From assembly GCA_963850305.1 (NCBI GenBank), contig CAWKKR010000005.1:335641-399640 (forward strand): a stretch of 64,000 nt of DNA, given 5' to 3'. This DNA comes from an uncultured delta proteobacterium. Lineage in GTDB: Bacteria > Myxococcota_A > Polyangia > Polyangiales > Polyangiaceae. Shown in pieces: positions 26,782-64,000 of the stretch (position 1 is the stretch's first letter; the number at the start of each line of letters is the position of its first letter). A model generated the notes under the pieces. That model was not told where the DNA came from and searched no databases. It worked only from the letters and a program-made list of their open reading frames with translations. Both the position numbers and the translations under genes were made by a program.

Positions 26782-27966
26782 ATGCAGCAGCTTTTGTGTG
26801 GCTTGGTCAGCACGCGGGCAGGTTTGATCCTGGCGGCGTTGATTCCGGCGCTTGCCGGATGTTCCGCCTCGTCCTCGACGGGGCTGGGCGGCACACCCCT
26901 CTCGGGGACGGGCGGAAGTTCCGGGATCCTGTTCGGAACCGGTGGGAACGGCTCCGGAGACGCGCCCGGCAGCGGCTCGTTCACGGGATTCGGCGGCGAG
27001 GTCACGACGATCCCGACCTCCATCGACGCGGGCTCGTGCGGGTACGGCGTCGGCGCCGAGCAGATCCCGGTCGACGTGTACATGATGATCGACCAGTCGC
27101 TCTCGATGACCGCGTCGGATCCGAGCGGAGGGACTCGCTGGAGCGGCATCGTCTCGGCCATCACGCAGTTCGTGCAATCTCCCCAGAGCGCGGGAATCGG
27201 CGTCGGAGTGCAGTACTTCGGGCTCGGCGGACTCTTCGCGTCGTGCACGCCGGCCGATTACGCGAACCCCGAGGTGGAGATTGCGCCCTTGCCGGGCAAT
27301 GCGGCCAACATCGTGACCTCCCTCGGCAATCACGGGCCCTCGTCGACCACGCCGTCCGAGCCGGCCCTTCAAGGCGCGATTAACCATGCCATTGCTTGGA
27401 AGGGGTCGCACCCAGGTCACACGGTGGTCGTGCTCCTGGTGACGGACGGAGAGCCCGACACCTGCGACACCGGAACCGTCGCGGGCGTCGCCAGCATCGC
27501 GGCCTCAGGCGTGTCCGGAACGCCGTCGATCCCGACGTACGTGCTCGGCGTCGGGCCGTCGCTGACCGACCTGAATACGGTCGCCGCCGCGGGTGGTACC
27601 GGACAGGCATACGTCGTGAGCAGCGCGAGCGGCGTTGGGGACGCCGTCGTCGCGCAGCTGAACAAGATCCGCGGCTCGGCGGTGAACCCCTGTGAATTTA
27701 CGATCCCGACGCCGGCGGCGGGACAGACCTTCAACTACAGCCAGGTCAACGTCATTTACTCGTCGGCAGACGGCCAATCCCAGTACATCTACAACACCCC
27801 CGACGTCTCCAAGTGCGACCCGACGGATCTGGCCTGGTATTACGACAATCCCACCGCGCCGACGAAGATCACTCTGTGCGACGCCACTTGCCAGACGGTG
27901 ACCCAGGGCGGCGGGAGCGTTAATTACCAGCTCGGTTGCCCGACGAAACCGGTGCCGATTCACTAG
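26782..27966 (+). CDS. von Willebrand factor A domain lipoprotein
   Basis: lipobox LAGC, MIDQSLSM MIDAS motif, TP, VTDGEP. Confidence 0.88.
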   Translation: MQQLLCGLVSTRAGLILAALIPALAGCSASSSTGLGGTPLSGTGGSSGILFGTGGNGSGDAPGSGSFTGFGGEVTTIPTSIDAGSCGYGVGAEQIPVDVYMMIDQSLSMTASDPSGGTRWSGIVSAITQFVQSPQSAGIGVGVQYFGLGGLFASCTPADYANPEVEIAPLPGNAANIVTSLGNHGPSSTTPSEPALQGAINHAIAWKGSHPGHTVVVLLVTDGEPDTCDTGTVAGVASIAASGVSGTPSIPTYVLGVGPSLTDLNTVAAAGGTGQAYVVSSASGVGDAVVAQLNKIRGSAVNPCEFTIPTPAAGQTFNYSQVNVIYSSADGQSQYIYNTPDVSKCDPTDLAWYYDNPTAPTKITLCDATCQTVTQGGGSVNYQLGCPTKPVPIH

Positions 27967-27970
27967 GGTG

Positions 27971-28437
27971 GGGGGTCTTGACCCCCGCGGCTCGCTGCGC
28001 GCCCGCTCCCCCGCCGTTTTCCAACGGGGGTCTTGACCCCCGCGGCTCGCTGCGCGCCCGCTCCCCCGCCGCCTTCGGCGGGCTCGTGTTCGCAAGGGGG
28101 TCTTGACCCCCGCGGCTCGCTGCGCGCCCGCTCCCCCGCCGCCTTCGGCGGGCTCGTGTTCGCAAGGGGGTCTTGACCCCCGCGGCTCGCTGCGCGCCCG
28201 CTCCCCCGCCGCCTTCGGCGGGCTCGTGTTCGCAAGGGGGTCTTGACCCCCGCGGCTCGCTGCGCGCCCGCTCCCCCGCCGCCTTCGGCGGGCTCGTGTT
28301 CGCAAGGGGGTCTTGACCCCCGCGGCTCGCTGCGCGCCCGCTCCCCCGCCGCCTTCGGCGGGCTCGTGTTCGCAAGGGGGTCTTGACCCCCGCGGCTCGC
28401 TGCGCGCCCGCTCCCCCGCCGCCTTCGGCGGGCTCGC
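27971..28437. repeat. tandem array of a 70-bp palindromic REP/BIME-like unit (about 6 copies plus 1 partial)
   Basis: TCTTGACCCC recurs at 28031, 28101, 28171, 28241, 28311 and 28381 (period 70) and at 27976; the unit contains GGGGGTC-TT-GACCCCC and CCGCC-TTC-GGCGG hairpins; it sits between convergent genes. Confidence 0.95.
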
Positions 28438-28552
28438 TTCGCTCGCGTAGTGCCGTTCGTTTCATCGCTTACGACGCTCGGGCCCTCGCTCCGCGCGGCG
28501 CGTTGGCGCGCTTCTGTCGAGCTCCGGCGCGCGGGCTCGCGCGTGCCCACCT

Positions 28553-32149: not shown

Positions 32150-32280
32150 GTAGTTCCGCATCGACGAGCAGCGTGGTCCCCGAGGGATCAAAGAGGTGCG
32201 GAACTACGCGAGCGGAGCGAGCACGCCGAAGGCGGCGGGGGAGCGGTCGCGGAGCGAGCCGCGGGGGCAAGGCCCCCTTT
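32150..32280. repeat. 58-bp GTAG-terminated inverted-repeat element plus one inverted copy of the 70-bp REP-like unit
   Basis: GTAGTTCCGCA...TGCGGAACTAC (32150-32207) is the near-exact reverse complement of 47988-48045. Confidence 0.85.
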
Positions 32281-47544: not shown

Positions 47545-48045
47545 CAAAGGGGGGCCTTTGCCCCCCGCGGCTTGCTTCGCAACCGCTCCCCCCGCCGCCT
47601 TCGGCGGGCTCGTGCTCGCAAGGGGGTCTTGACCCCCGCGGCTCGCTCCGCGCCCGCTCCCCCCGCCGCCTTCGGCGGGCTCGTGCTCGCAAGGGGGTCT
47701 TGACCCCCGCGGCTCGCTCCGCGCCCGCTCCCCCCGCCGCCTTCGGCGGGCTCGTGCTCGCAAGGGGGTCTTGACCCCCGCGGCTCGCTCCGCGCCCGCT
47801 CCCCCCGCCGCCTTCGGCGGGCTCGCTTTGCTCGCAAGGGGGGCCTTTGCCCCCCGCGGCTTGCTCCGCGACCGCTCCCCCCGCCGCCTTCGGCGGGCTC
47901 GCTATGCTCGCAAGGGGGGCCTTTGCCCCCCGCGGCTTGCTCCGCAACCGCTCCCCCCGCCGCCTTCGGCGGGCTCGCTTTGCTCGCGTAGTTCCGCAGC
48001 TCTTTGATCCCTCGGGGACGACGCGGCTCGTCGATGCGGAACTAC
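47545..48045. repeat. second array of about 71-bp REP-like units (6 copies, two variants), ending in the 58-bp GTAG element
   Basis: GGGGGTCTTGACCCCC and GGGGGCCTTTGCCCCC variants with CCGCCTTCGGCGG; between convergent genes. Confidence 0.93.
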
Positions 48046-48621: not shown

Positions 48622-48732
48622 CGGGGTCCCCGCGGAGTTTATCGATTGAGCGAAGCCAGGAGCGGGAAAACCGGGCGCGAGCGACCCGCGGCTCCAGTCG
48701 GATTCGTACACCGGCCAAGGCCCGCGATTTGC

Positions 48733-48777
48733 GGTGTCCGGGGCCGGAATTGAACCGCCGACACGTGGATTTTCAAT
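48733..48777 (-). mobile_element. 3' fragment of tRNA-Phe (att-like site 1)
   Basis: reverse complement is ATTGAAAATCCACGTGTCGGCGGTTCAATTCCGGCCCCGGACACC; no D-arm or 5' half. Confidence 0.85.
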
Positions 48778-50307: not shown

Positions 50308-50318
50308 CCCTGAATTTC

Positions 50319-50366
50319 TGGTGTCCGGGGACGGAATTGAACCGCCGACACGTGGATTTTCAATCC
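50319..50366 (-). mobile_element. 3' fragment of tRNA-Phe (att-like site 2, boundary of the integrase island)
   Basis: reverse complement is GGATTGAAAATCCACGTGTCGGCGGTTCAATTCCGTCCCCGGACACCA; about 95 bp from the integrase stop. Confidence 0.88.
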
Positions 50367-50461: not shown

Positions 50462-51664
50462 TCATGCGAGTCGGCGTCCACGGCCCCCCGGGATGAGCCG
50501 AAGAGCCACCTTCCGCTCCGCCGCAGCGTCCTCGAAGCGTTGGAAGAGTTCGTCCCCTTTGGTCGCCCGACCGTAGACTTGGTCGAGCATCCTGGTCGAC
50601 GTGTGTCCCATAGCGACCGCAAGGTCCTCTTGGCGGACACCTTCATCTTTGCACCAATGGGCGAAGGTCCGTCGGAGATTGGTCAAAGTACAGTGCTCGA
50701 TCTTCGCGCGCTTGCAGGCTTCGTTCATCGCGCGCCGAGCGTTCGACCAGGCTGAGAACAACAGGCCGTCCTCACCATCGGCGTGGGTACGCACGAGCTT
50801 TAGCAGCTCGTGCTGCCAATCGAAGAGCAAGGGCACAAGGCGCTCGCGTGTACGTCGCTTCGTTCCGTGGATCGGAATCATCCGCGCTTTGGAGTCGGCG
50901 ACGTCCGTTCTCAGGGCACGCTGGACGGCACGCAGTTCGGCTCCGGTCGCGAGCACGTAAGCGGCGATCGCGGCCCGCGCCTCGTCGAGAAAACCCCCGA
51001 GCAGCGCCTTGGCCTCTTCGTGCGTGAGGTGGTGTTCACCGGGCTCGTAGTTCGTCTCGAAGCCGGGAGGGACAACGACATCTAGATCGCCCGTCCACAG
51101 ACCCTGCCGTTTCGCAAGCCGCAGCGCCGGCCGCAATGTCGTGCGCTCTTTGCTGATCGTGTAGTCGTCCACGTTCCCGCGGCGCCATGTGACGAATCGG
51201 TCCACGAAACCGGCGTCGACGCCCGCAAGCGAGAACGATTGGCCCGCCTCGATTAGCCCCGCACTCTCTTCCTTTGTGAGCTGGCGCGGAGGTCTTCGAT
51301 CTTCGCTCTTCGTCTCGGCTGCCTCGTACGCCGCGAAGAGATACCAGCTCTTCGCCTTCTTTTCGTAGAAGATCACGGTGTCGTCGCTCTTCGGGTTTTT
51401 CGCCCGCTTCGTTTGGGATCGTCGGTCCTCGACGAGTAGATCGATCGCTTGTTTCAGCGTCGCACCCTGCTCTCGACGCTTCTGGGCCGCCGCGGTCGGA
51501 TCGGCTGCTTCTAACTCCCATTGAGTGAGCTGCTTGCGGGCAGCTTCCTTCCTCGTCTGGCGCGTCGATCGTTTCTCTTGCTTATACTTCCCATTGGGGC
51601 CTCGCGTGTTGACCCAGGCGTACCAAACGCCGCCTGGGCGTCGGCGAAACAGGTGCTCGCTCAT
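50462..51664 (-). CDS. tyrosine recombinase/integrase
   Basis: N-terminal arm-binding-like WYA..KRSTR; HGTK, NLRRTFA, MGHTSTRML..VY; adjacent to the att site. Confidence 0.88.
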   Translation of the reverse strand: MSEHLFRRRPGGVWYAWVNTRGPNGKYKQEKRSTRQTRKEAARKQLTQWELEAADPTAAAQKRREQGATLKQAIDLLVEDRRSQTKRAKNPKSDDTVIFYEKKAKSWYLFAAYEAAETKSEDRRPPRQLTKEESAGLIEAGQSFSLAGVDAGFVDRFVTWRRGNVDDYTISKERTTLRPALRLAKRQGLWTGDLDVVVPPGFETNYEPGEHHLTHEEAKALLGGFLDEARAAIAAYVLATGAELRAVQRALRTDVADSKARMIPIHGTKRRTRERLVPLLFDWQHELLKLVRTHADGEDGLLFSAWSNARRAMNEACKRAKIEHCTLTNLRRTFAHWCKDEGVRQEDLAVAMGHTSTRMLDQVYGRATKGDELFQRFEDAAAERKVALRLIPGGRGRRLA

Positions 51665-52290
51665 TGGTCGAACGTCCTTTTCGCGTAACGCTCCCAAACC
51701 TCGACGAGTACGCGGAGGCTCTTGCCTGTCCCGTTCACCCGACCCGATGCCTCGCGGAGATGACGGTATGCGGTCGACTTGGAGCAATCGAGTGCGTCCA
51801 TGACGTCTTTCATGCCCACGTAATGCGAGAGACGCGGTGTTCTCTCTGAGCGCTTCGGCTGCTGTCCACCGTCGGCCTTACGCTCGCGCGATCTCGTTGG
51901 TCGTGCAGTAGGGGCGGTCGGCAACGCATCGGTAACGAACGTCGGCAACTCTCGCGACGCTGCGCCCGTGAACACGTCGTTCGGGTCCTTCGTGCTCTTC
52001 ACGCCTTCGAGCTTCGCCGCGAGCGCCGTGGCTAGGTCATCACGACCAGTCAATATCGCCTCGTGAACTCTCGCCTCCTCCTCGTGCTCGAGTTCGCGAA
52101 TATGCTGGTCGACGAATTCCCCCACGAAATCGATCGCGTCGAAGACAGCGATGACCGTGTCTGCTCCCGCAGCCAGGAACATGCCGCCGTCGCCCTCGTC
52201 GGCGATCGCGGCGTGCGCCGGAAGGGGCGCGAGATCGATCCCCGCCCAATCGGTCGCAGCGGCGGGGTTCTCTGCTAAGTTGTGATCCAT
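51661..52290 (-). CDS. excisionase/AlpA-like HTH protein
   Basis: C-terminal VGMKDVMDALDCSKSTAYRHL; its stop overlaps the integrase start. Confidence 0.6.
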   Translation of the reverse strand: MDHNLAENPAAATDWAGIDLAPLPAHAAIADEGDGGMFLAAGADTVIAVFDAIDFVGEFVDQHIRELEHEEEARVHEAILTGRDDLATALAAKLEGVKSTKDPNDVFTGAASRELPTFVTDALPTAPTARPTRSRERKADGGQQPKRSERTPRLSHYVGMKDVMDALDCSKSTAYRHLREASGRVNGTGKSLRVLVEVWERYAKRTFDQ

Positions 52291-53952: not shown

Positions 53953-55443
53953 ATGACCCGGGCGGACCACGACGACAACACGACCGAGCTGCTCGACCCC
54001 CTCGTCGCGCGGGCCCGCCAGCGCGTCGGCAGCGTGCTCAAAGAGAAGTGGCGCCTCGACGTCCTTCTCGGTGTCGGCGGCATGGCGGCCGTCTATGCAG
54101 CCACGCATCGCAACGGCAGTCGCGTGGCGATCAAGATCCTTCACCCGGAGCTGAGCGTCAGCGCCGACGTGCGCACGCGCTTCATGCGCGAGGGCTACGC
54201 GGCCAACGCCGTCGGTCACGACGGAGTCGTCCGCGTCTCCGACGACGATGTCTCCGACGACGGGTCCGCGTTCCTTGTGATGGAACTCCTCGATGGCGAA
54301 ACGCTCGAGGACCGCCGCCAACGTAACGGAGGCCGCCTCAGCGAAGACGAAGTGCTATCCGTCGCCGACCAACTCCTCGATGTGCTCGTGGCCGCGCACG
54401 CCAAGGGGATCATCCACCGAGACCTCAAGCCCGAGAACGTCTTCATTGCCCGCGATGGCCGCGTGAGGGTTCTCGATTTCGGCATCGCGCGCCTCCGGGA
54501 GATGTCCGGCGCGAGCCACGCGACGCGCACCGGCTTCTCGATGGGCACGCCCGCATACATGGCGCCCGAGCAAGCGCGTGCGCTATGGAACGAAGTCGAT
54601 GGGAGAACCGATCTCTGGTCGCTCGGTGCGACGCTGTTCTCGCTTCTTTCAGGCAGAGAAGTTCATTCCGGGCGCACCGCCAACGAGGTCCTCATCATGG
54701 CAGCGACGCAGCCCGCGCCGCCGCTCGCGTCGGTCTTGCCGGAAGTGAGCCCCGCAGTTGCGCGGGTCGTGGACAAGGCCGTGGCATTCGAGCGCGATCA
54801 TAGGTGGCGGGACGCCGCGACGATGCAGGAGGCCGTGCGGTCCGCGTACCACGATCGGCACGGCACGCCGTTCCCCACGGCTTCGCAGCTCACGGTTCCC
54901 CCGACGGTCGTGAATCGGACGTTGGCTTCGGCGGCGGTGAGCGCCGTCTCACCCGGGGCACCGACAACGAACCGCGCGGTCGCGACTTCTCATATCGGTG
55001 CGTCGCTCGCGTCTCTTGCTGCGCGCTTCCCGAGCCTGAGCCCAATCGCCCTTGGCGTCGGTGGCGCTGTGATCGTCGCCGCGATCATCGTTGGCGTGGT
55101 TCTCGTGTCAAGCGGAAGCAAAGCCCCGGCGCCACCGGCGGCGGCGACAACGACGGTTGCCGCTAGACCCGAGCCATCGGCCCCGAGAATCGCCTCGAGC
55201 TCGCCCGCGACGGCAGCGGCTCCCGAACCGAATGCCGCGCCGACAATCGCAGTGACCGATCTGCCGACGGAGACCGCTCCGGCGGTCACAATCGTGAAGC
55301 CGGCACCAAAGCCTCGAGTCCTGGCCCCGACGCCTGCGGCTCCGACAGCGACAACGGCGAAGACGGCAAAACCCGACTGTAGCCCGCCGTACGTGCTCGA
55401 CCCCGTGACTGGGACGAAAAAATGGAAGCCAGCATGTTTCTAG
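53953..55443 (+). CDS. membrane serine/threonine protein kinase
   Basis: [36 protein letters not shown] helix, Pro-rich linker, C-terminal C.PPY...K.WKPAC. Confidence 0.95.
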
Positions 55444-55445
55444 CG

Positions 55446-56304
55446 GTGCGAACCCGAACGGCGCTTCTCGCCGCGGCAGCGGTGGCCGTGGCCAGATCCG
55501 CGGTCGCGACCGAACCAGCGCCGACGAAGGCGGAATGCATCGCTGCGAGCGAGTCTGGCCAGGACCTTCGCCACGCGGGGAAGCTCAACGATGCCCGCAC
55601 GCAGTTCGCGGTCTGCGTGGCGGCGAGCTGCCCGGGGCCGATCCGCGACGACTGCGCGCAGCGCCTGAACGAGATCGGAAAGGCGACGCCCTCGGTCGTG
55701 TTCGAGGTGAAGGACGCGACCGGCAACGACGTGCCGGGCGTGGCGATCACGATGGACGGGCAATCCGTTGCGGGCGTCGGCACGGCTATCGAGCTCGACC
55801 CTGGCGAGCACACGTTCAGCTTCGAAGTAGCGGGGCTCCCGAAGATCGAGAAGCGACTCGTCATCGCCGAGGGAGTGAAGCAACGGCGCGAGGTCGTCAT
55901 CATGGATCCCGCGCTGAAGCGGCGCAGACCGCGAACACGGAATCACCAACGACGGGCGAGGAGCCCGCGCGATCAGCGGGTCTGCCGACTCTCGCTTGGG
56001 TGGCGTTCGGGGTCGGTGGTGCGGGGTTGCTGCTCGGCATGACTGCCGGTCTCGTCGCCGGAGCGAAGCACTCATCGCTTTCGAACGTCTGCAACGACAC
56101 CGCCGGCACCTGCCCACCGACGTACAGCGACGACCTCGACTCCTTCCACACGTGGCGAACGGTTTCGACCGTCGGCTACGTCGTCGGTGTGCTCGGTGTC
56201 GCGGGCGGTACAGTCCTGTGGCTGACAGCGCCGAAGGCGTCGAGCACGATGACGGCGCGTGTGTGGCTCGGGTCGGGTCGGCGGGGATTGCGGGGAGGTT
56301 CTGA
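55446..56304 (+). pseudogene. PEGA-like exported protein, frameshifted
   Basis: signal peptide, Cys motif, IELDPGEH; the frame changes near 55905 and 56272 to give hydrophobic segments and the GIAGRF end. Confidence 0.7.
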
Positions 56305-57024
56305 ATGCGCCTGTGGTTGCCGATCGTGCTCGCTTTGCCTTTGGTGGTGACGGCGTGTCCGGCGCTGCTTAGCGACTGGAAGGTCAGCGGGAGAGGCGCG
56401 GGCGATGCCTCCGTTGACGCCACCGGTCCCGGGGCCGGCGGCTCATCGGGATCGAATGGCGGCTCGTCGTCGGGCGGATCATCCAGCTCGGGCGGCGTAG
56501 ATGGGGGTTTGTTGCACAGCGAGAATGGTCTTGACGGAGAGGCGAATGGTGCTGGCGGTTCTATCAATGCGTGCGCGACGGGTACAGTTCGTTGCTTGGA
56601 GGCGCAACCGCAGACGTGCGTGAGCGGCGTTTGGCTCGCGAACGGGGCGGCGTGCTCGGGATCAACGCCCGTGTGTTTGAATTCGAATGGAGGCTGCGTG
56701 ACGTGCAATCCAGGCAGTCGGTCATGTGCAAGTCAGACCCAGCCCGAGACGTGCGATGCATCCGGTTCGTGGGCGGCGGGCACCGATTGTCCGACGGCGA
56801 CTCCGTTGTGCTCCGAGGGGGCGTGCGCGGCCATTTGCTGTAAGTCTACGACCGACACGACAGTTCTGTCGTGTGATCTCGCCAACTCCAGCACCCAATG
56901 GGACTGTCTAAGCGGTAGTGCATGGGGTCTGTGCGGAGAACCCGGTCACTGCACTAGCACTGGCCTCACGTGTGGCGTGGTGGGACAGCTGACGGCTACC
57001 GGAACTGTCGAAGCCTGTCCGTGA
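56305..57024 (+). CDS. Cys-rich lipoprotein
   Basis: lipobox VTAC-PALLSDWK, Gly/Ser linker, Cys repeats. Confidence 0.78.
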   Translation: MRLWLPIVLALPLVVTACPALLSDWKVSGRGAGDASVDATGPGAGGSSGSNGGSSSGGSSSSGGVDGGLLHSENGLDGEANGAGGSINACATGTVRCLEAQPQTCVSGVWLANGAACSGSTPVCLNSNGGCVTCNPGSRSCASQTQPETCDASGSWAAGTDCPTATPLCSEGACAAICCKSTTDTTVLSCDLANSSTQWDCLSGSAWGLCGEPGHCTSTGLTCGVVGQLTATGTVEACP

Positions 57025-57048
57025 TTCGCGAAAGAAGACTGAAAACCA

Positions 57049-57324
57049 ATGCGCTACGCCGACCTCAAAAAAGAACGCGACGAAGCCATCGCCCGCGCCA
57101 TCGAAGCCGAGCGACTCTCGATGAAGAGCGAGTTTGACAAGCTCGCGGCCGAGCACGAGCAAGAGCGCTTCAGGTCGCTTGCGTTGGTCGAATCCGGAAC
57201 ACGCGAGCGCGCGCTCGACGTCGCGGGCGGCGCAGTCCTCTGGCTGACGACGCCGACGGCACGCGACGCGACAGCGACGGGCAGGCTCGGACTCGCGTCC
57301 GCGGGGCGCGCGGGGAGGTTCTGA
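57049..57324 (+). pseudogene. chimeric ORF ending in a remnant of a PEGA-gene paralog
   Basis: VAGGAVLWLT...AGRF* is paralogous to the 3' end of the 55446-56304 gene. Confidence 0.55.
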
Positions 57325-59129
57325 TGCGCGCCTCGCTCGTGATCGCGCTCGCACTCCCGCTCGCGCTCACCGGATGCCCGGCGTTGCTCTCTGATTGGAA
57401 GATCAGCGGCGGCGGCGCGGGCGATGCCTCGGTTGACACCACCACGGGTGGGGTGTCCGGCAACGGTGGAGTCGGCGGCGCGACGAGCACCGGTGGCGCG
57501 ACGAGCACCGGTGGCGCGACCGCTACGGGGGGAGCCGGCGGAACCGCGGGAAGCGGAGGCGCGGTCAGCACCGGTGGAACGGATGGCGGCCCGGGAGACG
57601 GCACGGCGGTTGGGAATCTTGGAGACGCGTGTCCAGAGAACGCCGCCACCGCGTGCAATGGCCAGGCGCAGCAGCAGCAGCTCGTCTGCGTGAACCACGT
57701 CTGGGGCGGCAACGGGAAGTGCACCGGCAACAACAACTGCGACAGCGCGCCGGGAGCGACTGCCGGGACTTGTCAGCCCGTCGTGGCCGAGTGCATCGGT
57801 AAGCAACCGGGAAACGTGCTGTGCCAGGGCATGAACCGCGTCGCGTGCGGCCCGGACCTCGTGACGACAACTCCGGTGGACACATGCGCTGCGGACACTC
57901 AGACGTGCGTGAACGGTGTCTGCGTGACGTGCGGCGCCGGGACGGCGAACTGCGACGGGAACGCGACGGACTGCGAGACGAACCTGAACTCGACGGCGAC
58001 GTGCGGGACGACGTGCGTGAACAAGGTGGCTTGCTCGACGGCGAACGGGACGGCTTCGTGTAGCACGGGAGCGTGCGTGGTCGCGAGCTGCAACAGTGGG
58101 TACGTCGACTGCGACGGACTAACCGGCAACGGGTGCGAGACGAACCTGAACGACCCCGCGACGTGCGGGACGACGTGCTTGACCAACGTGGCCTGCGCGG
58201 CCCCCACTCCCGCGTGCAGCGCCGGCACCTGCGTCGCGCCTCCGAGCTGCCAGGGCCTGCCCGCCACGTGCGGCCCTTCCGGGAATGAGTCGTGCTGCAC
58301 GAGCCCGCTGGTGACGGGTGGGACGTTCTACCGGAGCTACGACGGCGTGACATCCGGCTACACGAGCGAGGCGTACCCGGCGACGGTGAACAATTTCCTG
58401 CTCGACAAGTACGAGATCACGGTGGGGCGGTTCCGGAAGTTCGTGGCGGCGTATTCGCAGAGCATGATCGCGGCGGGTGCCGGCAAGAACCCGAACAACG
58501 CGAGCGACCCGGGCTGGGACACGGCGTGGAACGCAAGCCTGCCCGCTGACGCGGCGGCGCTTCAGACCGCCATCGCGTGCAACGCGACGTACCAGACGTG
58601 GACCCCGAGGGGGGAACGACAACCGGCCGATGAACTGCATCGACTGGTACGAGGCGAACGCCTTCTGCATCTGGGACGGCGGACGTCTGCCGACGGAAGC
58701 AGAGTGGAACTACGCGGCGGCAGGAGGGACCGACCAGCGGGTGTACCCGTGGGGCGCGACGGCACCGGGAGCGAACGCGGCTCTGGCCGTGTACAGCTGC
58801 TACTACAACGGAGCTGGGAGCTGCTCGGGAGTCACAACGTCGCTCCCGTGGGCTCCGTGAGCGCCGGCAACGGCAAGTATGGGCAGGCGGACCTTGCCGG
58901 CAACGTCTCGGAGTGGACGCTGGACTGGTATGCGAGCCCCTACTCGCAGACGTCGTGCACAAACTGTGCCGATACAACAGCAGCCGCGTACCGGGTCATC
59001 CGCGGCGGGGGCTTCGACGACATTGCGTCGTACCTGCTCTCGTCGTTCCGCAGCTACAACGGCCCGACGGGCCACAGCTTCAACTTCGGTTCCCGGTGCG
59101 CCAGGACACCCGTAGCAGATCGGGCATGA
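57324..59129 (+). CDS. DGR target: Cys-rich lipoprotein with a C-terminal FGE-sulfatase/C-type lectin-fold domain (two compensating frameshifts)
   Basis: lipobox LTGC; LDKYEITVGRF; PMNCIDWYEA.AFC.WDGGRLPTEAEW..AA in the alternative frame (about 58610-58835); DLAGNVSEW, RVIRGG, GSRCAR. Confidence 0.88.
   Translation: MRASLVIALALPLALTGCPALLSDWKISGGGAGDASVDTTTGGVSGNGGVGGATSTGGATSTGGATATGGAGGTAGSGGAVSTGGTDGGPGDGTAVGNLGDACPENAATACNGQAQQQQLVCVNHVWGGNGKCTGNNNCDSAPGATAGTCQPVVAECIGKQPGNVLCQGMNRVACGPDLVTTTPVDTCAADTQTCVNGVCVTCGAGTANCDGNATDCETNLNSTATCGTTCVNKVACSTANGTASCSTGACVVASCNSGYVDCDGLTGNGCETNLNDPATCGTTCLTNVACAAPTPACSAGTCVAPPSCQGLPATCGPSGNESCCTSPLVTGGTFYRSYDGVTSGYTSEAYPATVNNFLLDKYEITVGRFRKFVAAYSQSMIAAGAGKNPNNASDPGWDTAWNASLPADAAALQTAIACNATYQTWTPRGERQPADELHRLVRGERLLHLGRRTSADGSRVELRGGRRDRPAGVPVGRDGTGSERGSGRVQLLLQRSWELLGSHNVAPVGSVSAGNGKYGQADLAGNVSEWTLDWYASPYSQTSCTNCADTTAAAYRVIRGGGFDDIASYLLSSFRSYNGPTGHSFNFGSRCARTPVADRA
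58978..59106 (+). repeat. DGR variable repeat (VR)
   Basis: 129-bp ungapped match to 59760-59888 with 20 mismatches, all at codon positions 1-2. Confidence 0.9.
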
Positions 59130-59204
59130 ATGTTGCTTGTTCGCGCGGATCGTCACCAACCCCTGATCCCTTGAATCCTGAACCCCTGAAAATTCCGAGG
59201 AAGC

Positions 59205-59717
59205 GTGAGCCACGAGCCGGATGCGAAGCAAGGGTCGGATGACGTCGCCGCAGGCAAGGAGCCGGGCGGGTCTTCGTCCGGGAGCCGAGCGAGCGGAGCG
59301 AGCGAGGCTCGCCCTGCGCGGGGCCGTGGCGGCTCCGCGCCCGCCGTTGCGGCGCTCCGGATGGAAAGCGTTTCGCTCTGGGTCGTGCAGCGGGTGGAGG
59401 CTTTCCCGCGCAGTCACCGGTTCACCATCGGCGACCGCTGGATAGAGACCTGCCTCGACGCGCAGACGAGCCTCGTCGAGGCGAGCTACGTCCGCGACAA
59501 GCGCGGGCTCCTGCTCGGCGCTTCGCGGGCGCTCGTGCGCGGCCGCGTGCTCGCTCGGATGGCCGCCGCGCTCCGCGCCATCTCGCTCGATCAGGAGGCG
59601 CACTTCGCTCGCGAGTCGGGCGAGATTGGCCGCATGATAGGCGGCTGGCTGCGCGCCCTCCGGGGAAGCGATGCGCGCGCGGCATCTAAGAACGTCGGGG
59701 TCGCCGGTACTCCATGA
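59205..59717 (+). CDS. avd: DGR accessory protein Avd (four-helix bundle)
   Basis: FPRSHRFTIGDR and EIGRMIGGW motifs; lies between the VR and the TR-like copy; start could be 59361. Confidence 0.9.
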   Translation: MSHEPDAKQGSDDVAAGKEPGGSSSGSRASGASEARPARGRGGSAPAVAALRMESVSLWVVQRVEAFPRSHRFTIGDRWIETCLDAQTSLVEASYVRDKRGLLLGASRALVRGRVLARMAAALRAISLDQEAHFARESGEIGRMIGGWLRALRGSDARAASKNVGVAGTP

Positions 59718-59734
59718 TGATCTCATGGAGTACC
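59706..59734. other. perfect 12-bp hairpin at the avd stop, 5' of the TR
   Basis: GGTACTCCATGA-TGATC-TCATGGAGTACC. Confidence 0.85.
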
Positions 59735-59759
59735 TTCGGTCCCGCGGGGGCGGGGCGGG

Positions 59760-59888
59760 CAGCAGCCACGAACCGGGTCATCCGCGGCGGGAGCTTCAGC
59801 AACCATGCGTCGTACCTGCTCTCGTCGAACCGCATCTACAGCGGCCCGACGAGCCGCAGCAGCGGCAACGGTTCCCGGTGCGCCAGGA
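59760..59888 (+). repeat. DGR template-repeat-like copy (TR)
   Basis: intergenic, directly after avd; carries A at 12 of the 20 mismatches with the VR. Confidence 0.85.
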
Positions 59889-60138
59889 GTGCGCCGTGAG
59901 CGCGTCCAGGTGGTCCGGAGCGAGCGATGACGCCGCAGAACCTGGGGGGCGCGAATCCCCTCCGACCAGGCCGAGCCGGGTCACCGCGGCTCCGTGCGTC
60001 CGAGCGCAGGAAGCGCCGTAGAGCCTGCCGTTCCCTCGCGGGTGCTGTCTCGGCCTCCTCGCGGCCCTGGCCTCCGAGGTTTCCGTTGACCATGGCGCTC
60101 GGCGGGCGTGTACTTCCGGATCAACGCAGGGGTTTTCC

Positions 60139-61140
60139 GTGCAGATGATTGTCCGGCGCATCGTCGTGCCAGGAGTTCTCCTGGCCGCTCTCTCGTTCAC
60201 CGGCAACGTTGCCGCCCAGGCCGCAACGAGCAGCGCGGAGGCCGAGGCCCTCTTCGATGCGGGCCGTGCTGCCCTCGATCGGAAAGATTATGCCACCGCC
60301 TGCGAGCGGTTCGCCGGGTCGAACAAGCTGGAGCCCGCGGTCGGGACCGTGTTGAACCTCGCCTACTGCAATGAAATGCAGGGCAAGCTCGCCACGGCGT
60401 GGGCGAACTATCGTGAGGCGCTCTACAAGCTGCCCCCGGGAGACTCGCGGGCCGCCACGGCCCAGACCCGGCTCGATGCGCTCCAGCCGAGGCTCGCCTA
60501 CCTGACACTGCGGGCAGTCGGGCTGACGAAGGAGTCCACCGTGCTGCTCGATGGCGTGACGATCCCGGTCGAGGCCCTCGGTGTCCCGGTGCCGATCGAT
60601 CCGGGTCCGCACGAGGTGATCGTTCGCTCCCCAGGTCGGCAGACGGAGACCTTCGACACGACCGTGAAGGACGCCGAGAAGGCCGAGCTTGCCGTATCAC
60701 CCGGGGACTCGAACCAAGCCGCATCCTCGGCACCGATTCCGCAAGCTCCTGCTGCGACGCTCCCAAAGCCACTGGAGCAGCCAACGCCGCCGCCCGTCGA
60801 ACACGATCAAGGCAGCTCGTCCACCCTTGGCTACGTCCTCGGAGGCGTCGGCCTCGCTTCTCTGGCCACGAGCTTGGTCACAGGGCTCATGGCCCTCGGC
60901 AAGAACTCGAGCGTGAATGACCACTGCCAGGCTGCCCCCTCTGGCCCAGCACGGCTCTGCGATTCGGAGGGATTCTCCGCGGCTGCCTCGGGCAAGACGC
61001 TGGCCCTCGTGTCCGACGTCACGCTGGGCGTCGGAGTCGTGGGACTCGGGCTCGGGACGTACCTCGTTCTCACCGCGGGGGGCAGCACGAGCCGTGAAGG
61101 GCCGGCGCAGGGCTCCGTGAGCTTCACGGGGACGTTCTGA
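60139..61140 (+). CDS. TPR plus PEGA-like exported protein
   Basis: AEALFDAGR..AC.RF..S..LEP..GT.LNLA.C; PIDPGPH; hydrophobic segments, terminal GTF. Confidence 0.85.
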   Translation: MQMIVRRIVVPGVLLAALSFTGNVAAQAATSSAEAEALFDAGRAALDRKDYATACERFAGSNKLEPAVGTVLNLAYCNEMQGKLATAWANYREALYKLPPGDSRAATAQTRLDALQPRLAYLTLRAVGLTKESTVLLDGVTIPVEALGVPVPIDPGPHEVIVRSPGRQTETFDTTVKDAEKAELAVSPGDSNQAASSAPIPQAPAATLPKPLEQPTPPPVEHDQGSSSTLGYVLGGVGLASLATSLVTGLMALGKNSSVNDHCQAAPSGPARLCDSEGFSAAASGKTLALVSDVTLGVGVVGLGLGTYLVLTAGGSTSREGPAQGSVSFTGTF

Positions 61141-62584
61141 TGTTCAAGCTCGCGGTAACGACGTGGATCGCCGCCGTCGCGTTCACGACGGCCTGCACGG
61201 CGTTCGTGGACTTCAGCAACCTGGAAGCGAGGGGCTCGGACGCTGGAACCGGGGGAACACGTGCTGCGGATGCCGGCTCGGGCGGCGGAGTGTCGAGCGG
61301 GAGCGGCGGGTCGGGGGGGTTGGGCGGAGGCACCGGCGCGGGCGGCTCGTCGGGATTGGGTGGCGTGATTGGGGCCGGCGGGACGATCGGTTCGGGAGGC
61401 GCCGAGGGCAGCTCCGGCTCTGGCTCTGGCGGAACGAGTGGCGCGACGGCAACCGGTGGCGCGGCGGGGTGCGCGACTCACACCCTGCCTCCATCGGTCA
61501 ACGTCGATGCATCGCAGTGGACGGCGGAGTTCCTCACGGCGCCCACGTGGAATTGCAACGCGAGCGGGACGACGACGATCGACTCCAATGCGGGCACGAT
61601 AACGAGCACGAGCTGCGCCCTCGGCACGGTCGATTTACGAACGGCGTTACTCAACTCGACGCGAGCGGGCCGAGCGTCATGGTCGTTCGTCTACAAGGAC
61701 TCACCGTGACGAACGGCCACGTGATCCAGCTGACGGGCGACAAGCCAATCGTCTTCCTCGTAGCGGGTGATGTCGTCGTCGACACGGGCGGCAGGATCGA
61801 CGCGAGCGCGAATGGCACCGCAGCGGGGCCCGGAGGTAGCGACTCGACACGATGCACCGGCTCGACCGGCACGCCCTCTTCAGAGACGGGCATTGGCGGC
61901 GGCGGTGGAGGTTTCGGTACCGCGGGGGGGTACGGCGCCGATCTCACTGGCAGGAGCGGCAGCGCGGGAGGAGCCGTTAGCTCGATAACCAACCTTCAGC
62001 CTCTCCGTGGTGGATGTTCCGGAGGGACCGGGGGAGGGTCCCAAAACTTCACGGGCGGAGGCGGCGGTGGGGCGTTCGAGATCAGCGCGTCTGGAACGAT
62101 CACCATCGGACACTCGGGCGACACCTCGACAACGAGCGGCACGCTGAGTGCCGCTGGCGGTTACTCCCTGGGCGCGCCCAAATATACGCCCAATAGTGGC
62201 AGTGCCGGCGCGGGGAGTGGCGGTGGGATTCTCATCGTGTCACCCGCAACCGCCACGTTCGGCACCAACGGTGCGGCTCGCGCCCACGGCGGGGGGTCCG
62301 GGTCCGGATATGGCACGGACGCGGACCCAGGCGGCAACAACGGGACGAACGGGCATACCGCGGACAACACGGCGGCGGCGGGGGGTGCAGCGCCGAACAG
62401 CTACGGGGCCCCCGGCGTCAAGGGCGGGCTCTGCGCCGGCAACAACTGCTCGATCGCTTCCGCGCCGGGATCAAACGGCGCTGGCGCGGGTGATTCCGGC
62501 ATCGATCACGACGGGTCCGGCGGTGGCGGCGGTGGCGGGCGCGTCGTGGTGATGACCAGCGCGGTCACGGTCGCGTGCGACTGA
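61140..62584 (+). pseudogene. Gly-rich lipoprotein, frameshifted
   Basis: lipobox TTAC in the 61140 frame; continues in the 61163 frame after about 61636 (GGGGGGFGT.GG, LRGGCSGG, GGGGGGRV). Confidence 0.72.
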
Positions 62585-62771
62585 GGAGCAGCGCCCCGAA
62601 CGCGACGCCTCAATTGCCCGGAGCTGCGCAACGACGTGCAGCGCGACGCGACTCGTCGAACAGTCAGGCCCGGGCAGACCTGCCACCTCGACGCCCGCGT
62701 CTCGAGCATCAACGCCTACAGAGCAATCTAGCCCACGGGGTGGCGGCCCGCGTGACTCGTGCACGAGCGCC

Positions 62772-62880
62772 TCAGCGAGGCCCGGCGAGCGTCGTGCTCT
62801 TTCCCAATCCGGACGGAGCGAAGAGGACGGTGACGTAGATGGGACCGTCGAACGTGACGTCGATCGGAGGGAGACGACGG
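62772..62880 (-). pseudogene. fragment resembling an ABC ATPase (ModC-like) N-terminus
   Basis: IDVTF...[16 protein letters not shown]alker A-like motif followed by a stop. Confidence 0.4.
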
Positions 62881-62974
62881 TGACGCGCGAGTCTCCGGAG
62901 GCGGGGCCGTCTTTCGGCAACCGGCCGACAACGCCGCAGAGCGAAACGTCCCGCTCGAGCGGAGGCGTCGTACG

Positions 62975-63250
62975 CGCCCGCGGATTCCGGAAGCTCGACG
63001 TCGTCTCGCAAGCTCGCGCCGAGAGCGAGCCGGGCCACGCCTGGGATCGCCAGGGCCCGCGTGAGCCCGTCGCGCAACGAGAGGCCGAGGCGCGTTTCGG
63101 CGCGAACGATTCCGCGAAGCGGACCGCGGAGTCTTGCTTTTTTCATGAAGGGCTGGAGGCGCGACTCGTACCGGGCGAACGCGACTGTATGTGTCGGACC
63201 GGCCGCGAGCTCGTCGGCGAGGACATAAGCGGCGATGATCGCGAGCGTTC
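62975..63250 (-). pseudogene. C-terminal fragment of an FAD-dependent monooxygenase
   Basis: [13 protein letters not shown]...[12 protein letters not shown]...[16 protein letters not shown]-terminus missing. Confidence 0.6.
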
Positions 63251-63448
63251 TTTTAAATCTGCTACTCCGGTCAGCGTGACCAGAGTCGAGACATCGAGCG
63301 CCCGGAGGCGTCCGGGGATGGGCGTGAAGCCGCGCCACCGTGTCGGAGGCCAGGAGAAGCAAAGCCGTCCCCTTCGTCGACCCGCCGCTCCCCCGCCGTC
63401 CACGACGGCCCCGGGCCGTCAAGGACGGGGATTTTCGGTACATTTTGA

Positions 63449-64000
63449 GAAGAGCGGCACGTCACCGGCTGGGACGATCCCCGCATGCCGACCCTCGCCG
63501 GACTCCGCCGCCGCGGCTTTACGGCTGAAGCCATCCGCTCGTTCTGTGACCGCATCGGTGTCGCCCGGAAGGACGGGGTCGTGGACGTGGCGCTCCTCGA
63601 GTTCGAGCTCCGCGAGGACCTCAACAGGCGTTCGCCACGAGCGATGGCCGTGCTCAGGCCGCTCCGGCTGGTCATCGAAAACTTTCCCGAGGGAGAGGTC
63701 GAGTGGTTCGAGGCGTCGAATCATCCGGAGTTTCCAGATCGAGGTTCGAGGAAGATCCCGTTTTCCAGGGTCGTCTATGTCGAGGAAGACGATTTTCCGA
63801 GAGGCGCCGCCGAAGGGGTGGTTTCGCCTCGCCCCGGGTGCCGAGGTCAGGCTGCGGTCCGCGTGCCTCGTGCGGTGCCGCGAAGTCGTGAAGGATGAAG
63901 CTGGCCACGTCGTCGAGCTCCGGTGCACCTGGGACCCCGACTCGCGCGGAGGCATGCCGAAGGATGGACGCAAGGTAAAGGGGACGATTCACTGGGTCTC
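63449..64000 (+). pseudogene. glnS: 5'-truncated glutaminyl-tRNA synthetase (runs off the window)
   Basis: [49 protein letters not shown]; in-frame TGA at 63446, no HIGH half, frameshift near 63796. Confidence 0.85.

Follow-up and report, generated by a model that had tools for sequence, protein, structure and literature searches.

Among the described systems closest to the locus reported here is the DGR carried by Bordetella phage BPP-1, in which target, avd, TR, spacer and RT follow one another in that order. The template of a DGR is regarded as unchanging, and where TR and VR differ at non-A sites, RT infidelity is usually blamed. In the sections of Wu et al. 2018 covered here (PMC5758913), non-A differences were reported in 86 of 372 DGRs (23%), with up to 11 per target, and were attributed to RT infidelity, integration errors and independent mutation. 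In the portions of other sources that we covered, adenine loss is modelled as the outcome of point mutation (10.64898/2026.02.18.706561), Treponema shows natural variants of its TR (PMC4891356), and in the engineered DGRec system of E. coli TR adenines are erased and RT-independent recombination between TR and VR also takes place (10.1101/2025.03.24.644984; 10.64898/2026.07.21.739853). Full-text literature searches, judged by titles, abstract openings and the passages covered, found no natural TR-VR fusion or self-homing; the TR-VR alignments of Wu et al. 2018 could hold similar cases. The locus analysed in this work behaves as the remains of a BPP-1-type DGR, falling short of a functional one in its RT, its spacer and its IMH*.

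Layout of the locus and its genomic surroundings

The window, that is, the whole 64-kb stretch of DNA that was analysed, is the terminal part of contig C5 of assembly G000 (6.26 Mb, 11 contigs, 94.84% complete), and the DGR locus lies 4 kb from the end of that contig. An FGE-sulfatase target with VR1 is followed by avd, the TR-position copy, a 159-nt spacer and a TPR-type gene, as listed below.

57324..59129, + strand: target gene 1, encoding a predicted lipoprotein whose C-terminal domain is of the FGE-sulfatase (CLec-type) family (PF03781, E 4.5e-18)
58978..59106, + strand: VR1, the variable repeat at the 3' end of target gene 1, a 129-nt direct repeat (84%)
59160..59189, + strand: pyrimidine-rich repeated motif upstream of avd, a by-eye reading, unscored
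59205..59717, + strand: avd accessory gene, open frame, sole copy in the assembly (PF22296, 41.7 bits, cut-off 40)
59706..59734, no strand: perfect 12-bp inverted repeat spanning the avd stop codon (fold z -4.9, 0/200 shuffles)
59760..59888, + strand: TR-position copy, with template-type 5' flank and adenine-eroded body from 59799 on
59876..59899, + strand: 3' end of target-gene type, RCARSAP-stop, where the templates of relatives have AAG-AC
59900..60058, + strand: 159-nt spacer without an intact DGR spacer (Sp), with faint Sp-like boxes at 59905-59922 and 59959-59998
60059..61255, + strand: upstream region and TPR-containing gene 60139-61140, identical at 97.2%, gapless, to C6:118558-119754

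The product of target gene 1 would be a lipoprotein, as its N-terminus suggests. In the assembly its frame shifts near 58610 and near 58835, judging by the frames and by gaps against the intact paralogue on contig C9, whose own frame is open. The C9 paralogue carries the second variable repeat, VR2 (C9, 81694-81831), and matches the Treponema protein TvpA (2y3c, E 7e-15), so that, as in functional DGRs, the variable repeat lies in a CLec/FGE-type C-terminus (PF03781; PDB 2y3c match); a single-sequence structure model of the C9 target was uninformative (pLDDT 30). The avd gene, likewise a component of functional DGRs, exceeds the cut-off of PF22296, and it scores 65 bits against NF033474, below the cut-off of 80. 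The pyrimidine-rich motif 5' of avd was seen by eye in L010 and L012-L014 too, and the 12-bp inverted repeat at the avd stop was not seen in aligned relatives. A putative open frame of 61 codons (59714-59899), whose ATG overlaps the avd stop, contains the TR-position copy. The gene at 60139-61140 has a weak TPR match (E 0.006) and is presumably PEGA-type. Kinase-to-FGE islands related to the window locus are present on C6 and C9, and the same 3.26 kb (99.4%) was found at C2:1-3252 and C5:6-3259, both broken at the end of an FGE paralogue.

Several repeats were observed elsewhere in the window. Within 63345-64000 lies a 105-nt element that recurs on C1, C5, C7 and C9; behind it comes a frameshifted fragment, with 90% identity to C7:352847-353397, which we take to be related to glutaminyl-tRNA synthetase; element and fragment are possibly the boundary of the island. 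A 51-nt direct repeat (94%) at 48727-48777 and 50314-50364 adjoins a phage integrase gene (50462-51787), and repeats and integrase gene together are likely the integration site of the island. We assume that this repeat resembles the 3' half of a tRNA; ARAGORN called no tRNA at either copy. Arrays of a 70-76-nt GC-rich repeat, presumably REP-like, occupy 27945-28504 and 47551-47991, with an inverted copy near 32150-32280.

The three repeats and their ancestral template

In an ungapped comparison, the TR-position copy (59760-59888) and VR1 (58978-59106) differed at 20 of the 129 nt; A stands in the copy at 12 of these mismatches, in VR1 at six and in neither at two. These counts, the codons listed for them and the identity of the GC-rich 3' end in both copies were all reproduced exactly as the original prediction had given them. 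By codon position, 11 mismatches are first and nine are second, and the 42 third positions are free of differences in all three pairs among the copy, VR1 and VR2; an even spread of differences that takes in third positions, the pattern named beforehand as speaking against a mutagenised template, is absent. Between VR2 and the copy there are 25 differing repeat sites, and 11 of these are non-A. Directly upstream of the repeats, targets 1 and C9 differ at 7 of 81 nt; since silent sites are identical while these flanks differ, the repeats must have been homogenised recently, and such homogenisation of silent sites among TR copy and VRs beside diverged flanks is what marks a degenerate DGR locus. 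The differences do not lie almost only at adenines of the copy, as they do in a functional TR-VR pair (12 of 20 for VR1, 14 of 25 for VR2), unless the adenines of the related templates L011 and L031 are taken as ancestral.

Relatives of this avd were found in 34 of 382 family genomes and at a few metagenome loci, and the close homologues come from Polyangiaceae or Myxococcales according to their source records. Neither avd nor the avd-TR part had a match in six same-genus genomes, and viral contigs and plasmids yielded no match either. Twenty relative templates were taken, chosen by their AAG-AC end or spacer motif, the closest being L011 (avd 87% over 70 aa). All eight non-A mismatches between copy and VR1 fall on L011 adenines, against a background of 14 of 95 non-A sites (p = 1.8e-6, with codon positions 1-2 only as background); the corresponding figures were 8/8 for L031 (p = 1.5e-5) and 7/8 for L016. 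The non-A mismatches between copy and VR2 behave alike (9/11 on adenines of L011, 10/11 of L031 and 9/11 of L016), and p values overall range from 2e-6 to 5e-5 against the background of positions 1-2. Per 113 nt, the copy has 20 adenines, VR1 16 and VR2 13, against 28-36 across 18 relative templates and 6-24 across 12 VRs, with L028 and L039, both decayed, kept out of the ranges; the copy thus lies within the VR range. The divergence is adenine-specific, unlike even drift, and the copy, VR1 and VR2 descend from an A-richer template absent from the assembly. The proposal that both copies come from a more AAC-rich template, with every non-A difference between copy and VR1 mapping to its adenines, was therefore borne out, a single site in L016 excepted. 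As to the third master template that it envisaged, blastn, avd, RT and spacer searches of the assembly returned none.

The copy kept every adenine up to 59798, and loss begins at 59799. Seven of its alleles occur in neither VR1 nor VR2. VR1 retains A at six sites and VR2 at five sites where the copy has lost it, which indicates that neither VR was rewritten after the erosion. In a hand count that drops 59777 and the columns identical in all three repeats, the same non-A allele was shared by copy and VR1 in 3 of 5 columns, by copy and VR2 in 1 of 7 and by VR1 and VR2 in 7 of 13, with no nested series. Among the 14 AAC/AAT codons of the copy, which we assigned from relatives, the first A is kept in nine, compared with 37 of 127 in natural VRs (p 0.007), and AGC is found in five, compared with 15 of 127 (p 0.02), as if the copy's codon spectrum were that of an unselected sequence. 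An Asn preceding the final Gly, as in the copy, occurs in 1 of 24 gene ends. The peptide score of the copy falls among these 24 gene ends and below all 13 TRs; peptide scoring failed to separate selected from unselected VRs. The two TAC codons of the copy were rejected as proof of protein selection: in the part of the source covered (PMC12875486), no unselected AAC product of the BPP-1 RT is commoner than Tyr.

Flanks of the copy, spacer and RT

The 5' flank of the copy aligns with the TR flanks of relatives and not with VR flanks, and its 3' end (RCARSAP-stop) is that of VR2 through the stop codon but for one stop-codon base, with a nearly identical end in the C6 paralogue; an IMH* distinct from the IMH of the target is thus missing. 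Since relative templates had been selected by AAG-AC end or spacer motif, the end was re-checked on 14 pairs found by self-BLAST only, of which 13 TRs end in AAG-AC and one in AGC-AC. The copy is, as these alignments show, chimeric, with a template-type 5' flank and a target-gene 3' end. The RCARSAP-ending pattern has 25 matches in 18 of 383 family genomes: 17 close a long FGE-like frame, one is the copy and seven are not FGE-like in our reading, and only the window copy has avd adjacent. From 60059 on, the window is 97.2% identical to DNA beginning 17 nt past the stop of the C6 FGE gene. The 159-nt spacer in between matched neither C6 nor the element behind other RCARSAP genes, and the search for its origin in 383 genomes gave only short scattered matches, in unrelated contexts in the 11 inspected. 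No hairpin beyond shuffles was detected after VR1, VR2, the C6 gene or the copy, and Rfam returned no match at E 1 for window positions 57000-64000.

Stand-alone RCARSAP FGE genes of several genera are followed by a conserved element, non-coding and about 80 nt long, which sits just past the FGE stop in L105, L108, L112, L114, L115, L123, L125 and L128. The VR2 flank matches it weakly (10.2 bits), and its likeness to the DGR spacer is not significant. The idea that RCARSAP genes are followed by a decayed spacer, and hence are TR-derived, was found unsupported (z -1.3 to 1.5, 18 loci).

The cassette is dead as assembled, without RT and without intact spacer. PF00078 had no match in the assembly and the best tblastn hit of the L010 RT reached E 2.7, so that the RT of a functional DGR is missing from a genome that is 94.84% complete; most loci of the clade have an antisense RT, whereas that of L031 and L048 is sense. 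The post-TR spacer of relatives is conserved and covarying (21 of 27 pairs with compensatory changes). At the window, this structured spacer is absent, save for a possible faint remnant: the spacer profile HMM gave -2.1 bits, compared with 62-78 for three held-out spacers, and the covariance model found nothing below E 0.13 in 54000-64000 (genome best E 0.068), with a positive control of 35-137 bits in 8 of 15 held-out loci. Tests for spacer traces, made only after a likeness had been spotted by eye, gave a 5' box at offset 15 with 10.4 bits (true spacers 5.1-24.6, offsets 11-22), a score that three shuffles in 1000 and three genomic windows in 1500 attained, and an ordered spacer chain of 29.7 bits (true 62-95), reached by 9 of 1000 shuffles and 1 of 1500 genomic windows. 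The spacer-like stretch of the window ranks first among 54 gene-end-like sequences, and a 7-bit covariance-model fragment lies at 59970-59998 (E 0.23).

Observations on the relatives themselves accompany these results. In the clade (L010-L065), the TR is followed by a conserved structured RNA, the spacer, which is some 200 nt long and covaries strongly. The RT is truncated or absent beside avd in L011, L017/L132, L018/L133, L047, L130 and L131 (remnants of 40-100 aa), L133 has lost TR and spacer too, and DGR death by deletion seems frequent in this clade. The cassettes L028:1833-2110 and L039:1885-2170 (genomes G377 and G389; wider regions L130 and L131) are RT-less and carry GAC-rich templates, with seven and five A-to-G changes relative to the L017 template plus differences at non-A sites; their VRs fit the L017 template better than their own, which looks like drift plus allele replacement.

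Possible histories of the locus and comparison with known DGRs

We tentatively favor, with a little less than even confidence, a TR x VR crossover that deleted the spacer, the RT and a downstream target and left a hybrid at the TR position. The starting point would be a DGR of the usual myxobacterial layout, with target 1, avd, an AAC-rich TR, a spacer and an RT in this order; it would have diversified target 1 and, in trans, the C9 paralogue, with another target of the same template, ending in RCARSAP-stop, downstream in the same orientation. A single crossover of TR with the downstream VR would give the window layout in one step, and the hybrid would join the TR 5' flank to VR3, a retrohoming product of the ordinary kind, together with the gene end of VR3. 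As adenines are all kept to 59798 and lost from 59799 on, the crossover may be placed in the constant stretch before 59799; had it taken place within the GC-rich 3' end, the erosion would lack an explanation. A target now lost, a crossover and the site of that crossover are what we infer from this pattern. Given the absence of RT and spacer and the target-type 3' end, a single crossover would suffice without self-homing, and the avd frame remains open, in line with what one recent event would predict. A substrate for such a deletion exists, since L130, L132 and L133 (three of the seven long relative regions, all from one genus and so not independent) have, past the cassette and on its strand, a kinase, a 60139-gene homologue and another FGE gene; in L132 and L133 such a homologue follows that second FGE gene. 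Moreover, VR2, with its 42 unchanged third positions, shows that RCARSAP-ended genes were targets of this template. Against the crossover, the lost target is unobserved, spacer traces are present where a clean deletion predicts none, and the 159-nt spacer is unlike C6 or the RCARSAP-gene element; in addition, VR3 would have to be fresh or unselected, because the copy is unlike selected VRs in first-A retention, AGC codons and Asn before Gly.

The spacer traces and the unselected-looking codons favor instead the overwriting of a resident template, and the two models that invoke overwriting by cDNA, self-homing and a missing master, are doubtful yet possible when taken together. The broader account, in which a natural template captured the homing end of its target, took up its own or a master's mutagenic cDNA and burned its adenines, a self-destruction by loss of directionality, is somewhat unlikely in our judgment. 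Self-homing in cis would have the TR gain a target-type 3' end (IMH) by short recombination and receive its own cDNA, a course we regard as improbable, as we do its sequel, in which adenines were lost without protein selection and later deletion removed the RT along with most of the spacer. The faint spacer boxes at the right offset and the unselected look of the codons agree with it. A self-retrohomed template would be an eroded TR that still has template flanks on either side; at the locus the 5' flank is template-type, the 3' end is gene-type and the spacer traces are faint. Swapping the IMH into the BPP-1 TR reportedly makes the TR a recipient, in work by Doulatov in 2004. In the parts of the sources covered, direction in BPP-1 is set by a 3' 21-bp segment (PMC3240598), and the TR mutagenises itself in systems engineered in E. 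coli (10.1101/2025.03.24.644984; 10.64898/2026.07.21.739853). On the other hand, self-homing requires at least two additional events, the spacer trace (a chain of 30 bits against 62-95) is too decayed for repeats of zero silent divergence if the cassette was recently functional, neither VR was rewritten after the erosion, and the shared alleles give no nested signal. A single dead locus from an unverified assembly is not yet a demonstration of natural self-homing. The original prediction that the template locus looks mutagenised thus holds for the adenine-specific loss, and its overwriting by the TR's own cDNA was not established, with RT and intact spacer missing and a target-type 3' end that includes the stop.

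If the local template was long dead, gained a target-type end and was synchronised in trans with VR1 and VR2 by an intact cassette elsewhere, unassembled or recently lost, old spacer traces would be squared with zero silent divergence; this second overwriting model is, in both its parts, a shade less probable than self-homing in cis. An incomplete genome (94.84%, in 11 contigs), C2 and C5 beginning at an FGE paralogue end and the degenerate DGR loci of Thiohalocapsa, diversified in trans according to the parts of that report covered (PMC10907252), speak for it; the 6.26 Mb hold no second avd, RT, spacer or AAC-rich copy, and the sole avd sits at the window locus. A misjoin or collapsed consensus of a true TR and the VR of an unassembled paralogue is less probable again. 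The locus is 4 kb from the C5 end, about six frameshifts fall in the last 10 kb, with 2 of 92 kinase loci as the figure for the whole genome, and where the starts of C2 and C5 overlap, over 3257 nt, there are 12 mismatches and 8 gap columns. Base error, however, is ruled out, as AAC was read as AGC at 0 of 61 sites in flanking paralogue alignments; the seven alleles private to the copy also argue against an artefact, and, as contigs reach 2 Mb, a repeat of 130 nt and 84% was probably spanned. That a dead template, its RT gone, underwent ordinary AT-to-GC drift is very improbable: although most lost adenines became G and the RT-less L028 and L039 carry GAC-rich templates, third positions show no difference and none of the 16 T sites changed to C relative to either VR, whereas L028 and L039 differ from their own VRs at eight and five third positions and retain AAG-AC and spacer.

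These results offer a testable alternative to RT infidelity, namely that, once an outgroup template is at hand, non-A differences map to lost adenines and the supposed TR is a damaged or hybrid copy. They also outline a concrete route of DGR death, through TR x VR fusion or once directionality is lost, in a family in which losing the RT seems to be common. If loss of directionality were the true cause, it would represent self-destruction of a DGR in nature, which in the literature covered is known only from engineered systems; in DGRec, self-mutagenesis is driven by added recombineering proteins, whereas the window holds a natural locus.

The locus resembles the intact DGRs of the family (L010, L016, L031, L048 and others) in its VR-avd-TR order, codon register and avd (50-87% identical), and differs from them in that they have 28-36 adenines, an AAG-AC end, a conserved structured spacer and an adjacent RT. 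As far as the parts of the sources covered describe it, the BPP-1 DGR (PMC3240598, PMC5758913, PMC12875486) shares with the window the CLec/FGE-type C-terminus of the target, avd, the GC-rich 3' end and a repeat pair that differs only at codon positions 1-2; unlike BPP-1, the window locus has no RT and no intact spacer, its template is adenine-poor and ends as a target gene, and its copy is eroded while the BPP-1 TR stays unchanged. Thiohalocapsa PB-PSB1, in the parts of its report covered (PMC10907252), likewise has a multi-target chromosomal DGR, with loci lacking RT or TR and remote targets served in trans. Loss proceeds there via transposons and MITEs and a complete locus remains, which is not so at the window, and those parts describe no adenine-eroded or TR-VR fused template. 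Finally, unlike the view taken in the covered sections of Wu et al. 2018 (PMC5758913), an outgroup maps the non-A differences of the window to ancestral adenines.
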